Source: Bacteroidota bacterium
GTDB taxonomy: Bacteria; Bacteroidota; Bacteroidia; Palsa-965
Assembly (NCBI GenBank): GCA_046046005.1
Contig: JBJOKQ010000003.1
Span: forward strand, 1 to 43,156
Length of the DNA: 43,156 nucleotides
Reading direction: 5' to 3'
Position numbers and translations under genes: made by a program. The notes below the pieces were generated by a model. It had not been told where the DNA came from. It searched no databases and worked only from the letters and a program-made list of their open reading frames with translations. Shown piece after piece: positions 39,726 through 43,156 of this stretch. Each line of letters begins with the position of its first letter. Position 1 is the first letter of the stretch.

Positions 39726-40607
39726 ATGAAAGCACTTCCGTTCAAAATACCCGTAACAACACGTGAGTCGGTTGTAGTTGAAGAAGATATTCAGCCGCAT
39801 TTCTACACATACCTTCATCAACATGAGGAAGTGCAGCTCACGTGGATTTTGAAAGGCGAAGGAACGTTGCTCGCCGGAAATTACACGGGGAACTTCGGTT
39901 CCGGAGATATTTATTGGTTTGGTCCGAATCAGCCGCATGTATTTCGTTGCGACTCTGTTTACTTTCAGAATAAATCGTGGTTGAAAGCGCAATCAATATC
40001 TGTGTTCTTTCGTGTAGATGACCCTTCGCAAGGCGGGTTGCTTTCATTGCCTGAATTGGGATCGTTGCGAAAGTTTGCGGTGCGCAGTCAAGGCGGTTTC
40101 CGGATTGATCCCGAACATTATGTTGAGCTTACAGAAGCATTTCTGAAAGTTCGCGTGCAACACGGTTTAGCGCGACTCACTGCATTCATGCAATTGATCG
40201 ATCAGGTGCTCAATCACAGCAAGCACATTCCGCTTTCTGATGAACCTATCGGCATGCAGATGTCGGAGAAAGAAGGTTCGCGCATGCATTCCATTTTCGA
40301 TTACACACTGAAAAATTTCCACAAGGATATTTCAGTGACCGACGCGTCGAATGTTGTGCACATGACACCTGAAGCGTTCTGCAGATTTTTCAAAAAGCAC
40401 ACGCGTAAAACGTATGTAACGTTTCTTAATGAAATCAGAATTGAAAATGCCTGTCGTAAACTGAAAAACGGCGACGACAAACTGGTTGCAGAAATTGCTT
40501 ACTCCTGCGGATTCGGAAATGTCTCGCATTTCAATCGTGTATTCCGTAAGGTAACGGGCAAGACTCCGAAAGCCTATCAGCAGGCACAACTCGCGAGAAT
40601 GAAATAG
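39726..40607 (+). CDS. AraC family transcriptional regulator with cupin sensor domain
   Basis: LHQHEEVQLTWILKGEG and NQPHVF cupin motifs; C-terminal AFCRFFKKHT...IAYSCGFGNVSHFNRVFRKVTGKTPKAY. Confidence 0.95.
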   Translation: MKALPFKIPVTTRESVVVEEDIQPHFYTYLHQHEEVQLTWILKGEGTLLAGNYTGNFGSGDIYWFGPNQPHVFRCDSVYFQNKSWLKAQSISVFFRVDDPSQGGLLSLPELGSLRKFAVRSQGGFRIDPEHYVELTEAFLKVRVQHGLARLTAFMQLIDQVLNHSKHIPLSDEPIGMQMSEKEGSRMHSIFDYTLKNFHKDISVTDASNVVHMTPEAFCRFFKKHTRKTYVTFLNEIRIENACRKLKNGDDKLVAEIAYSCGFGNVSHFNRVFRKVTGKTPKAYQQAQLARMK

Positions 40608-40686: not shown

Positions 40687-40929
40687 ATGAATAACGAAGA
40701 GATCCGTAATATCATCCGAGGTAAAGTCAAGGATCTGACCTTCGTTAATGCAACGGACGATCAATCATTGCTCAAAGCAAAACTTCTCGACTCGATTATT
40801 GTAGTTGACCTTGCAGTTGAATTGGAGCAGGAGTTCGGATTCAAAATTCCGTTCACTGAAATTACAGAAGATAATTTCGAAACGATAAGTTCCATCGCTG
40901 CTTATATTCAGTCGCGAATCACCGCATAA
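40687..40929 (+). CDS. Acyl/aminoacyl carrier protein, DltC-like
   Basis: 80 aa, acidic; phosphopantetheine site LLDSIIVVDL...ELEQEFG..IP; immediately upstream of the DltD-like gene. Confidence 0.8.
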   Translation: MNNEEIRNIIRGKVKDLTFVNATDDQSLLKAKLLDSIIVVDLAVELEQEFGFKIPFTEITEDNFETISSIAAYIQSRITA

Positions 40930-40933
40930 ACGG

Positions 40934-42169
40934 ATGAAAGATTTCCTGTTCAAACATTTGATTCCATTGTCATTGGCAATGGGAATTGCAATTGTTTTGC
41001 TGAATACAGGTTTCCGCGATTTCGCATTTCGTGAGGACAGAAGAAATCTAAAAACGCAAGAAGTAACCGGTTGGCCTGTGCGTTTGTTTCCTTCGTTGGT
41101 ACAGAATCCTTCCGACTACGAACTCTTCACCACGCATTGGTTGCAATCTGATCCGATTGTGATTTTCGGGTCTTCTGAACTTTCATACTACAATTACAAA
41201 TCCATTCCGTATCACTTCTTTTCAGAACGCGGCATTCCCTGTGCAGGAATCGGTTCCGCCGGGAATCAATGCATGAACATTATGGGTCAGCTGATGTTTC
41301 TGAAACCCCATGTCAGAAAGATGCGTGTTGTGATCATGCTTTCTCCAGGATGGTTTGAAGAATATTCGGAAGGAACGGCTCTGGAAAATTTTCTCTTCTC
41401 TCAAAACGATCACACGTTGCATTTGATGAACGGAATGAACGACTCAGAATCCATGCGGTACATTGATGCATACGTGAGTGAAAACATCAACGCAATTTCA
41501 CACCCTTCATCTGTGTTGAGTATGATGGCTTATCGTCACCGCATACATGAAGTTCCGTTAGGAGAAGTTGTTTACAGCCCGCTGTTTAATTATCACGAAC
41601 ATTTCAGTGCATACAAAGCAGACAGAATGCAATCGCTGTGGAATGCGGGCAGAAGTAATTGGTCGTACAGCAACACAACGTCACCCGATGCAACTGTGAT
41701 AGATTATCATGCGCTTGAGTTTAATTGGGACAGCGCAATCTCTGCTGAACGAAAAATGTTTCTCGAAATCAGCAACGGGAACGATCGTTCGGTGAACAAC
41801 GAATATTACGAACAGTGGTTAAAAGGAAAACCATTACATCATTTGAAAATCCGCCCGATTGCAGAGCAAAGAGAATTTGCAGATCTGAAGATGCTGTTAC
41901 AGTTTCTGAAAGAATGCGGATGCAAACCTTTGTTCGTGATGCAACCTTTCAATCCGTATTGTATGCAGAATCTGAAGGAGTTCGATCAAACCGAAAAAGA
42001 AGTGGCGCAGTTGGTGACTTCAGGCGGATTCGAATACTTCTCCCTTTACACGTCAGATAAAAAGACCTATCAACCCGGAACGTTGACGGATATACATCAC
42101 CTCGGAGAAGCAGGCTGGTACATGATCAACCGAAAAATCAACTCTTACTTTTTCGAAGACAAAAAATGA
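40934..42169 (+). CDS. dltD: DltD-like membrane-anchored SGNH-type acyltransferase
   Basis: N-terminal TM; IFGSSEL (catalytic Ser block); VVIMLSPGWF; EFADLKMLL; DIHHLGEAGW (D-x-x-H-L-G-x-x-G-W). All resemble DltD blocks. Confidence 0.8.
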   Translation: MKDFLFKHLIPLSLAMGIAIVLLNTGFRDFAFREDRRNLKTQEVTGWPVRLFPSLVQNPSDYELFTTHWLQSDPIVIFGSSELSYYNYKSIPYHFFSERGIPCAGIGSAGNQCMNIMGQLMFLKPHVRKMRVVIMLSPGWFEEYSEGTALENFLFSQNDHTLHLMNGMNDSESMRYIDAYVSENINAISHPSSVLSMMAYRHRIHEVPLGEVVYSPLFNYHEHFSAYKADRMQSLWNAGRSNWSYSNTTSPDATVIDYHALEFNWDSAISAERKMFLEISNGNDRSVNNEYYEQWLKGKPLHHLKIRPIAEQREFADLKMLLQFLKECGCKPLFVMQPFNPYCMQNLKEFDQTEKEVAQLVTSGGFEYFSLYTSDKKTYQPGTLTDIHHLGEAGWYMINRKINSYFFEDKK

Positions 42170-42300
42170 AAAAAGCGCTGTTTCATTTTCTACTCTACAC
42201 AGTTCTGATTTGCGGATTGATCTATCTGTATTATCCGTTCAACGATAATTCAGAAACGCGTCCGTCTTCACAAATTCAATTCGTATACCAGAACTTCTGA
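42166..42300 (+). CDS. dltX: DltX-like 44-aa single-TM acyl-shuttle peptide (not in ORF track)
   Basis: Hand translation: MKKALFHFLLYTVLICGLIYLYYPFNDNSETRPSSQIQFVYQNF*. ATGA overlap with the dltD stop; C-terminal F-x-Y-x-x-F like FIYNEF of DltX; 1 nt before the MBOAT start. Confidence 0.75.
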   Translation: MKKALFHFLLYTVLICGLIYLYYPFNDNSETRPSSQIQFVYQNF

Positions 42301-42301
42301 G

Positions 42302-43156
42302 ATGCTTCCGTTCACCGGCATAGATTTCTTTCTGCTCTCCGCAATATTTCTGCTGAGCGTTTATGCTGTTAAAGCAATTGCGGGCACGCGATTCCCGCTA
42401 AAATGGTTGCTGCTGTCAGGATCTTTAATCTACGTTGTGTGGTATGTGCCGCATGCAATAAGCGCTTTCGCATTTCTTACATATACTTATCTCGTTTATT
42501 ACTGTGCAGAATATGTTTTTAAATCGGAAAAGAAATGGCCGGCAGTAATTCTGTTGCTCGCTCCTATGATTCTCGTCAAAGCATCCGTAGCGGTTGATGT
42601 AATTTCTTTCACAGGACTTTCGTACATCACGTTCCGTGTTATTCAGATTTATCTCGACAATAACAGGAATGAAAAACCTGTGCGCCCCGACGATTACGCA
42701 CTGTTTATGTTTTTCACGCCAACTTTGATGATCGGTCCTATTGATCGTTTCAAAAGATTCAACGATGATGTGAAAACAGGATTCGCTTCGTTGACGATTA
42801 CAAATTTCACACAGGGTTGGGAAATGGTGTTGCTCGGCCTGGTGCAGAAGTTCGTTCTCGCGGAGGCGATTAATAGATATTTACTTTCTCCTCTGAACAC
42901 TGAAAGCACTTCATTGTCTGAAATGCTCAGCAACATGTATGTGTATGCGTTCTATTTGTATTTCGACTTTGCAGGATATTCTTCACTCGCGGCAGGTTTT
43001 GCAAAACTCATCGGAATCAATGTGCCTCAAAACTTTAACAACCCTTTTATCGCAGTCAATCCTCAGGATTTCTGGAGACGCTGGCATGCATCGCTCAGTG
43101 ATTGGCTCCGCGATTATCTGTTCCGTCCGTATTACAAATGGATTTCGGGAAAAGAA
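42302..43156 (+). CDS. dltB: DltB-like MBOAT membrane acyltransferase; 3' truncated by window edge (not in ORF track)
   Basis: Hand translation from ATG 42302: MLPFTGIDFF..., FTGLSYITFRVIQ, FFTPTLMIGPIDRFKRF, YAFYLYFDFAGYS, PQNFKQPF, DFWRRWHASLSDWLRDYLFRP. Open to the window end. Confidence 0.85.
   Translation, partial: MLPFTGIDFFLLSAIFLLSVYAVKAIAGTRFPLKWLLLSGSLIYVVWYVPHAISAFAFLTYTYLVYYCAEYVFKSEKKWPAVILLLAPMILVKASVAVDVISFTGLSYITFRVIQIYLDNNRNEKPVRPDDYALFMFFTPTLMIGPIDRFKRFNDDVKTGFASLTITNFTQGWEMVLLGLVQKFVLAEAINRYLLSPLNTESTSLSEMLSNMYVYAFYLYFDFAGYSSLAAGFAKLIGINVPQNFNNPFIAVNPQDFWRRWHASLSDWLRDYLFRPYYKWISGKE

Follow-up and report, generated by a model that had tools for sequence, protein, structure and literature searches.

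The window, which is the whole stretch of 43,156 nucleotides analysed, ends in a set of dlt-like genes with the order dltC-dltD-X-dltB(-dltA), where X is a small open reading frame (ORF) lying between the genes for a DltD-like transferase and an MBOAT acyltransferase, and where dltA has been seen after the MBOAT gene in relatives (Table 1). A 44-aa ORF at this position, overlapping the dltD stop codon and ending 1 nt ahead of the MBOAT gene, had been proposed from an inspection of the letters alone (hereafter the original prediction), and both its coordinates and its translation agree with our own. The start codon of the ORF forms an ATGA with the DltD-like stop codon (TGA, 42167-42169), and one nucleotide separates its own TGA (42298-42300) from the following ATG. 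The description of the product as one transmembrane (TM) helix, a polar linker and a C-terminal FVYQNF is likewise borne out by hydropathy and sequence: the best 19-residue Kyte-Doolittle mean is 1.98, and this segment is preceded by an N-terminal MKK, presumed to be cytoplasmic by the positive-inside rule, and followed by a polar tail of 21 residues.

Table 1. Positions of the dlt-like genes, their upstream neighbour and the features of the microprotein in the window
Feature	Position	Strand	Details
AraC-family regulator, directly upstream	39726..40607	+	Pfam HTH_18 1.7e-21 plus Cupin/AraC_binding
DltC-like acyl carrier protein, 80 aa	40687..40929	+	Pfam PP-binding 8.1e-09
DltD-like SGNH-type transferase, 411 aa	40934..42169	+	Pfam DltD 1.2e-43
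DltX-type microprotein gene	42166..42300	+	44 aa, MKKALFHFLLYTVLICGLIYLYYPFNDNSETRPSSQIQFVYQNF; stop codon included
Predicted single TM helix	42175..42234	+	residues ~4-23, ALFHFLLYTVLICGLIYLYY; hydropathy, aligns to DltX helix
C-terminal hexapeptide F39-V-Y41-Q-N-F44	42280..42297	+	Tyr41 codon TAC at 42286-42288
DltB-like short MBOAT acyltransferase	42302..43156	+	first 285 aa only, contig end; Pfam MBOAT 8.6e-14

The dlt operon context that had been proposed for the ORF holds, given a carrier with a PP-binding domain, a Pfam match of the transferase to DltD and an MBOAT that scores 212.6 bits against the DltB model TIGR04091 (profile positions 2-285 of 380). For the carrier, NCBIfam ranks the DltC model NF003464 first, with 34.9 bits as against a cut-off of 68, while the DltD-like protein scores 111 bits against TIGR04092, under the cut-off of 150; the latter protein also matches the solved DltD chains 7dxm, 3bma and 6o93, and its GSSEL and D-x-x-H motifs are invariant across 6 relatives. 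The MBOAT stops at the contig end, ahead of the second conserved His, and its full-length DltB-like relatives are of 380-388 aa and lack the terminal motif. The genome encodes five further MBOATs, of 468-483 aa, and each of these has FIY[FY][RQH]F fused at its C-terminus.

In a relative locus (L017), the protein encoded after the MBOAT gene scores 434.6 bits on the DltA model NF003417. The assembly, which is 89.8% complete, was searched for a contig continuing the operon past the break in the MBOAT gene, and none was found; nor was there a DltA as strong as those of the relatives, the best (265 bits, contig C29) belonging to a different cassette. The claim that the full relay is conserved here stands in part: genes for DltC-, DltD- and DltB-like proteins are adjacent, but the MBOAT is cut by the contig end and DltA has been seen in relatives only. 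The genes upstream vary among relatives, and the AraC-family regulator is a neighbour that we do not assign to the dlt system.

Conservation of the microprotein gene

Many other ORFs of 30-60 aa are present in the same stretch, and since chance ORFs of such size are common, length alone is no evidence of a gene. An ending of the form F.Y..F was found in 4 of the 27,378 ORFs of 30-80 aa in the whole assembly, and amongst these only 42166..42300 has both a membrane-like hydrophobic stretch and an MBOAT neighbour. DNA contigs of four runs show no substitution or indel in 42166-42300 while the flanks vary; this lack of variation is not significant, as the most divergent full-length contig has 7-8 differences per 1257 bases.

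On searching 60 genomes for the DltD-like gene, 6 were found to be positive, and all of them encode, between DltD and the MBOAT, an ORF of 44-50 aa ending in QF[VI]Y..F. The system is patchy, being present in 4 of 26 genomes of the same genus. A wider search yielded 48 loci, 44 of them evaluable, from Bacteroidota, Photorhabdus, Achromobacter and one Chthoniobacterales MAG, with DltD identities of 25-34%. The original prediction had suggested that orthologous loci be checked for the frame and its terminal F-x-Y-x-x-F, and both are kept, as a small ORF with this ending follows DltD in 43 of the 44 evaluable loci (42 by filter and locus L063 by inspection). Amongst 39 distinct tails, Tyr (TAC in 21, TAT in 18) and the final Phe (TTC in 17, TTT in 22) occur in every one and Phe at -6 in 38, with the stop codon varying between TAA, TGA and TAG; entropies for the three codon positions are 0.40, 0.20 and 1.19 bits. 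Of 35 loci compared, 24 have an ATG that overlaps the DltD stop, and 31 have a spacing of -1 to +3 nt between the microprotein stop and the following start. Conservation across related loci marks the 44-codon ORF as a gene, well beyond chance, and the comparison shows it to be real and, as judged from its codon pattern, under protein-level selection.

Relationship to DltX

The window's microprotein has no match at E<=10 to the Pfam DltX family (PF12459, gathering score 25 bits) when searched as a protein, is not found by a six-frame search of the genome with the same model and is matched by none of the NCBIfam models. Across the 62 members of its family, PF12459 matches 3 at E<=0.001 (best E 2e-5) and 26 at E<=10, and it is the only Pfam family matched at E<=0.001. 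An hhalign comparison of the alignment of the 62 members with 6 annotated Firmicutes DltX gave a probability of 95.1% (E 3e-8) over 39 columns spanning helix and tail, falling to 92.9% (score 31.6) once the 6 final columns were taken out. Neither real score was reached by 100 column shuffles, whose maximum was 15.3 when the motif was included and 16.6 when it was left out, and the reversed control scored 11.6. The aligned helices of the family and of annotated DltX have in common the pattern Y-x5-G-x4-Y. Because the profile match persists without the motif columns, the microprotein is, on the evidence of these profiles, a divergent DltX homologue of an unnamed subfamily rather than the carrier of a shared motif alone, and "DltX-like", the term used in the original prediction, thereby extends to profile-profile homology with annotated DltX.

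The ESM Atlas provided a lead only: its top clusters are unnamed and score 0.87, below what the tool counts as more than a lead, and PF12459 is assigned to 15% of the members of a cluster at 0.79. The family profile found a chance match only amongst solved structures (E 0.58), and the Firmicutes DltX profile found no DltX chain in the PDB copy searched.

Firmicutes DltX (PF12459; "teichoic acid D-Ala incorporation-associated protein DltX"; gene order dltXABCD) resembles the microprotein in length (43-50 aa in six proteins, 44 aa here), in its single TM helix, which is predicted here, in a C-terminus that is exactly F-x-Y-x-x-F and in being encoded with homologues of DltC, DltD and DltB, joined by DltA in relatives. 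There are also differences. The gene follows dltD here and in 43 related loci, whereas it precedes dltA in six Firmicutes records, and the motif is F[VI]YQ[QN]F as against an invariant FIYNEF in Firmicutes DltX. The linker between helix and Tyr has 19 residues here and 12 in Firmicutes DltX, corresponding to an insertion of 7 residues in the hhalign alignment, and the N-terminal cytoplasmic part is shorter. Unlike the hosts of Firmicutes DltX, the host here is a diderm and, to our knowledge, bacteria of this kind have no teichoic acids. The mechanism of DltX is said to have been solved only in 2023, and in Firmicutes, the founding paper being that of Schultz et al.

The premise of the original prediction, namely that DltX ends in a hexapeptide such as FIYNEF whose Tyr shuttles the acyl group, is sound, as all 6 annotated DltX end in FIYNEF and the shuttle from DltB to DltD is described in PMC12148441 and PMC13653941. 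The former describes FXYXXF as an acyl-shuttle motif whose Tyr, it reports, carries D-Ala in DltX and becomes auto-acylated in PatA.

Proposed acyl relay and alternative explanations

Taken together, the ORF very probably encodes a single-pass inner-membrane microprotein of a divergent diderm branch of DltX, translationally coupled within dltC-dltD-X-dltB(-dltA) and taking part in an acyl-Tyr relay as in Firmicutes; its topology, its binding, the acyl-Tyr, the acyl group and the target are what we infer. Translation of the microprotein gene would be coupled with that of dltD, which lies upstream, and of dltB, which lies downstream. In the cytoplasm, a DltA-type ligase would charge the DltC-like carrier with an aminoacyl group, probably D-alanine or close to it; relatives of DltA, DltB and DltD all score under the NCBI equivalog cut-offs, and an acyl group other than D-alanine is conceivable. 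The short DltB-like MBOAT would then pass the group across the membrane to the hydroxyl of Tyr41 in a periplasmic tail ending ...QFVYQNF, and the tail may hand it on to the DltD-like SGNH enzyme, at its catalytic Ser; this enzyme would in turn esterify an envelope polymer.

MBOATs of the PatA/AlgI type, which have a fused tail and are paired with an SGNH protein, offer a second comparison, and the five MBOATs ending in FIY[FY][RQH]F in this genome are of this kind. Such MBOATs end in the hexapeptide, its Tyr likewise invariant, and a relay from MBOAT to Tyr to SGNH Ser has been proposed for them (PMC12148441). In contrast to these, the motif here lies on a separate 44-aa ORF upstream of the MBOAT gene, every one of the 39 distinct tails being closed by a stop codon, and the MBOAT is of the short DltB type (~380-388 aa in relatives) without the motif. 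The donor in the present system would be a carrier protein, to judge from the adjacent PP-binding gene, as opposed to acyl-CoA in the PatA/AlgI type.

Co-folding of the microprotein with the MBOAT, which had been put forward as a check, was performed on the pair of a relative (genome G010, locus L009) rather than on that of the window, with alignments made in-house. The design was confined to two chains, because with DltD as a third a control that swaps the longest chain alone would retain the other true partner. The ipSAE was 0.51 (median of 0.51, 0.47 and 0.57) and that of the best control 0.00; the pLDDT of the partner was at least 63, and 75% or more of the contacts agree between runs. Of 157 solved complexes, 116 attain the mark used, as do 2 of 215 mismatched pairs, and those reaching it at a value of 0.60 or below comprise 18 of the 157 solved complexes and both mismatches, a value of 0.51 being graded by the tool as weak support. 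The model lends weak support to an association of microprotein and MBOAT in the relative.

Three other explanations may be considered against this background. It is improbable, in our estimation, that the microprotein is a membrane subunit that only scaffolds or stabilises a DltB-DltD complex, its tail being a binding epitope that carries no acyl group. Conservation, synteny and the weak co-fold speak of selection and a likely association and not of chemistry, and a binding role does exist for the DltX tail, as binding of DltX's C-terminal motif to DltD is reported in PMC13653941. Against a mere epitope, the Tyr is invariant in all 39 tails and in all 59 fetched clusters, the hexapeptide Tyr is auto-acylated in PatA and bears D-Ala in DltX (PMC12148441), and the fused MBOATs of the same genome have the same motif ending, a pattern which fits a catalytic element better.

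We consider it quite improbable that an unrelated microprotein has converged on the terminal motif, with a function like that of DltX but without descent from it, even though the Pfam DltX model misses the window's copy and 59 of the 62 family members at E<=0.001 and though composition alone may align short transmembrane peptides. The hhalign match without the motif (92.9%, score 31.6) stands far from the shuffles (16.6 or less in 100 trials) and from the reversed control (11.6), the aligned helix has the common Y-x5-G-x4-Y, and the partners DltB, DltD, DltC and DltA are themselves homologous to their Firmicutes counterparts. The last alternative is that the frame arose by chance in the short gap between genes, or that it is an upstream ORF with a regulatory role and an irrelevant product; it is recommended by the frequency of ORFs of this length by chance, and we assign it a negligible probability. 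The amino acids are kept while the third codon positions vary, the ORF recurs in 43 of 44 evaluable loci despite DltD identities of 25-34%, and its ending is found in just 4 of the 27,378 small ORFs of the genome; the conservation data already contradict such a frame. A divergent DltX that serves as an acyl shuttle hence appears to be the explanation to prefer.

Diderm dlt operons and their annotation

On searching the family profile against 1.84 billion representatives, 60 matches were obtained at E<=0.001. Small proteins of 39-65 aa account for 59 of them, and F[VI]YxxF is the ending in each of these 59 clusters. Public gene callers do predict the family, under the name "hypothetical protein"; the description of the ORF as unannotated applies to the ORF track of the original prediction. 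The proteobacterial peptides are of 41 aa, end in EYQQF, QYSKF or EYQKF and match the Bacteroidota profile weakly, with E-values of 0.08 to 2.8. On a Klebsiella plasmid (L074), DltD is followed in order by a 40-aa ORF, an MBOAT, an AMP-binding gene and an ACP, and the 40-aa ORF is labelled "hypothetical protein" in RefSeq.

The dlt-like genes of Dickeya, Pectobacterium and Photorhabdus (dltD plus dltBAC) represent the same gene set, which in the Photorhabdus loci L058-L060 has the order D-X-B-A; a gene placed between dltD and dltB and not at the head of the operon, as the original prediction had it, is in fact the rule in the Bacteroidota and Photorhabdus loci. In PMC3544676, Gram-negative dlt-like genes are set out as dltD plus dltBAC, acting on a substrate that the account leaves unidentified, and the passages covered name no small gene between dltD and dltBAC. 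A literature search, which covered papers other than Schultz et al. 2023, found none that places a DltX gene in Bacteroidota, or between the dltD and dltB genes of Gram-negatives. The diderm DltX subfamily is undescribed by annotation pipelines or by the literature searched.

We lean slightly towards a broader reading, in which the shuttle microprotein extends beyond Gram-positives and diderm dlt operons have an unnamed DltX subfamily to themselves, its members here coming from Bacteroidota, Photorhabdus, Achromobacter, plasmids of enterobacteria and a single Verrucomicrobiota MAG. The gene of this subfamily would have a fixed place, directly after dltD and ahead of the following gene, and the periplasmic linker would be ~7 residues longer, the microprotein serving the aminoacylation of an envelope target other than teichoic acid. 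This would extend a known principle and adds no new one. It suggests that the DltX models of Pfam and NCBI should be widened, and an acyl-Tyr intermediate that can be trapped, or the tail peptide as a probe, may provide a handle on the target. Gram-negative dlt-like operons would contain a conserved DltX homologue that is now annotated as "hypothetical protein", and since this homologue lies inside the operon, it would be a fifth gene needed when such systems are reconstituted or deleted.

A small reading frame between the dltD-like and MBOAT genes

The assembly comprises 301 contigs at 89.8% completeness, and the window is one of these contigs taken whole (C3). A 44-codon ORF encoding MKKALFHFLLYTVLICGLIYLYYPFNDNSETRPSSQIQFVYQNF lies here within a gene set, the upstream neighbour of which is an AraC-type regulator. 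The peptide begins with MKK, is hydrophobic over approximately residues 4-23 and continues into a polar tail of 21 residues. Its ATG and the TGA of the preceding ORF overlap as ATGA, its own TGA ends one nucleotide before the next start, and the MBOAT that follows reaches the contig end short of the second conserved His (position 330 in the MBOAT of a relative, locus L009). The original prediction, made from the sequence alone, had described this frame, the overlap and the single-nucleotide gap, which the coordinates confirm, and the identities that it gave to the two neighbours are borne out by Pfam and NCBIfam matches.

Peptide ORF and adjoining dlt-like genes, with their domain matches
Feature	Position	Strand	Length	Matches
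Carrier protein	40687-40929		80 aa	PP-binding, 8.1e-09; best NCBIfam match is the DltC model, below its cut-off
DltD-like protein	40934-42169		411 aa	Pfam, 1.2e-43; TIGR04092, 111 bits (cut-off 150)
Small membrane-like peptide	42166-42300	+	44 codons	
DltB-type MBOAT	42302-43156		285 residues to contig end	TIGR04091, 212.6 bits, profile positions 2-285 of 380

The further claim that the full relay is conserved here stood in part: DltC-like, DltD-like, peptide and partial MBOAT genes are adjacent, but the DltA of the operon was not seen in this 89.8% complete genome, where the best DltA-like match (265 bits) is an adenylase on contig C29, belonging to a cassette distinct from the peptide's operon. 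That contig (locus L066, 1-4012) carries an SGNH/GDSL-like protein of at least 391 aa, a 99-aa carrier, the 476-aa adenylase and an acyl-CoA-dehydrogenase-like gene, and no MBOAT match was found on it.

Comparative evidence that the frame is a gene

ORFs of 30-60 aa number in dozens nearby, so the length of the frame alone is no evidence that it is a gene. The ending F.Y..F is rare, closing 4 of the 27,378 ORFs of 30-80 aa across the whole assembly, and the sole membrane-like ORF amongst these four that adjoins an MBOAT is the one studied here. The decisive evidence for a real gene is comparative. A DltD-like gene was found in 6 of 60 related genomes (4/26 of the same genus, 6/34 of the same family), and none was found in the 26 genomes searched that represent the class outside this family; such patchiness of the operon (40687-43156) is in keeping with a gene set that is accessory and possibly transferred. 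All six such relatives, with DltD proteins 24-31% identical to that of the window, have an ORF of 44-50 aa between DltD and MBOAT that ends in QF[VI]Y..F. Additionally, a wider scan with one genome per species gave 48 loci, partly from the same genomes as the set of 60, of which 44 were evaluable, with the stop of DltD present and no fewer than 200 bases beyond it. The small ORF was detected by our filter in 42 of these 44, and inspection of a Chthoniobacterales MAG (L063) recovered the motif inside a longer ORF ending EKFIYQGF, which the filter had missed, giving 43 of 44.

Amongst 39 distinct 3' tails, none lacks the Tyr (TAC 21, TAT 18) or the final Phe (TTC 17, TTT 22), 38 have Phe at -6, and the stop codon varies, all three being used. 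Over the last seven codons, entropy was 0.40 bits at the first codon position, 0.20 at the second and 1.19 at the third. Judged from the nucleotide sequences, this pattern is what a translated gene shows when under purifying selection. Of 35 tabulated loci, 24 have the ATG overlapping the stop codon of DltD, and 31 have the peptide stop within -1 to +3 nt of the start that follows. The frame and its terminal F-x-Y-x-x-F, whose conservation had been put forward as the check on the original prediction, are indeed kept in related loci, and both these loci and the window agree with the predicted placement of the gene between dltD and dltB rather than at the operon head.

On inspection, a Bacteroidales MAG (L037, 3227-4900) showed neither small ORF nor MBOAT after DltD; its carrier gene and DltD are kept, the spacer behind them is AT-rich and a peroxiredoxin-like gene comes next, and the locus looks like an operon remnant. 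In Photorhabdus antumapuensis (L054, 3285-4487), the DltD frame is broken in two (280 aa and 91 aa), and the small gene and MBOAT downstream are intact.

A search of 1.84 billion representatives with a profile built from seven peptides yielded 60 matches at E<=0.001. All but one are proteins of 39-65 aa, and each of these 59 ends in F[VI]YxxF; the sixtieth, a 1302-aa protein without a scored stretch, was left out of the ending count. The window's peptide has 95% identity to one database representative, and the public names of family peptides are 'hypothetical protein' or none.

Relationship to DltX and to fused MBOATs

The window's peptide, searched as a protein, gave no match to the Pfam DltX family (PF12459) up to E 10, a six-frame search of its genome with that model did not match it, and no NCBIfam model matches it. 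Amongst the 62 aligned family members, PF12459 matches 26 at E<=10 (best 2e-5) and is the sole Pfam family matched at E<=0.001, by three members. For comparison we took six genes annotated as DltX in Firmicutes records of a plasmid collection; all six proteins end in FIYNEF, the example that the original prediction gave of a DltX ending. Profile-profile comparison of the two sets gave a probability of 95.1% and a score of 37.9 (E 3e-8, 39 columns over helix and tail); with the last 6 or 8 columns removed from both alignments these became 92.9% and 31.6, or 92.0% and 30.1. The maximum score of 100 column-shuffled controls was 15.3 with the motif and 16.6 without it, and a reversed control scored 11.6. 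Since the signal persists above the controls without the motif columns, the resemblance goes beyond the motif, and a Y-x5-G-x4-Y pattern is common to both helices. We read the family, on these alignments, as a divergent DltX branch that is mostly missed by the current Pfam model. It differs from Firmicutes DltX in its motif (F[VI]YQ[QN]F versus FIYNEF), in a linker of 19 rather than 12 residues from helix end to Tyr, aligned as a 7-residue insertion, in a shorter N-terminus and in a gene position after dltD rather than at the operon head. The peptide is very probably a DltX-type acyl shuttle, the chemistry of which we infer.

The peptide and full-length MBOAT of G010 (L009), the closest relative with both (50% and 52% identical to the window's counterparts), were co-folded with an ipSAE of 0.51 (median of 0.51, 0.47 and 0.57), against 0.00 for the best of three controls; the pLDDT of the partner did not fall below 63, and contacts agreed between runs to at least 75%. 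In calibration, solved complexes reached the mark in 116 of 157 cases and mismatches in 2 of 215; only 18 of the 157 complexes, and both mismatches, did so with scores of 0.60 or under. These counts are only rough here as our own alignments were supplied for both chains. No chain in the PDB copy searched matches the DltX profile, so recall of a solved complex of this kind is less likely. The co-fold that had been proposed with the MBOAT argues weakly for the pairing, with this relative's proteins in place of the window's.

The available portion of PMC12148441 states that DltB is without the two C-terminal helices and FXYXXF motif found in other bacterial MBOATs, that the motif is furnished in trans by DltX, and that the DltX Tyr carries D-Ala from DltB to the Ser of DltD. 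The source genome has five other MBOATs of 468-483 aa (contigs C48, C66, C156, C25 and C194; loci L011-L015), all ending FIY[FY][RQH]F, with the motif thus fused to the MBOAT, and the relatives' DltB-type MBOATs have 380-388 aa and a C-terminus without it. Fused and split designs coexist in one organism. The DltX mechanism was reportedly described by Schultz et al. in 2023; sections of PMC12148441 and PMC13653941 also cover it. In one Bacteroidota MAG (L032, 4551-7328; L028, 2120-2998), a single 925-aa ORF covers the MBOAT and DltA regions, either a possible natural fusion or an artefact of assembly; the ORF finder also carries this ORF upstream across the small gene.

The acyl group and dlt gene sets of Gram-negative bacteria

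GSSEL and D-x-x-H are invariant in the DltD-like proteins, and the window's DltD matches solved DltD chains. These motifs are consistent with the Ser-Asp-His triad of L. plantarum DltD, in which Asp373 and His376 are three residues apart according to the accessible text of PMC13653941. In relatives, an adenylating enzyme follows the MBOAT and gives strong matches to DltA models, with 434.6 bits on NF003417 (cut-off 476) and 416.1 bits on TIGR01734 (cut-off 559.85). Because the Dlt homologues here all fall below NCBI equivalog cut-offs, the acyl group may be other than D-alanine.

A dlt-like cassette on a Klebsiella electrica plasmid (L074; NZ_CP041250.1, 1618-5670) is flanked by IS110 and IS1 transposases and has the order DltD, a 40-aa ORF ending HFEYQKF ('hypothetical protein' in RefSeq), MBOAT, AMP-binding protein and ACP, with near-identical matches on Enterobacter cloacae and Klebsiella pneumoniae plasmids. 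In the Chthoniobacterales MAG (L063, 3121-7481) the genes run carrier, DltD, small ORF, DltA-like and MBOAT, the adenylase being ahead of the MBOAT, and in Achromobacter kerstersii (L046/L047, 3291-6137) the small ORF is followed by an ORF of 491 rather than 380 aa.

No DltX gene inside Gram-negative dlt operons was described in the literature searched. The Dickeya dlt genes are given as dltD and dltBAC in the available part of PMC3544676, by which the target of the Dickeya and Photorhabdus dlt genes was not identified, and the B. thuringiensis DltX paper, in its accessible portion, describes the family as conserved among Firmicutes (PMC5541007). The peptide family is, on our reading, a divergent, unnamed DltX subfamily, the mechanism itself being already known.
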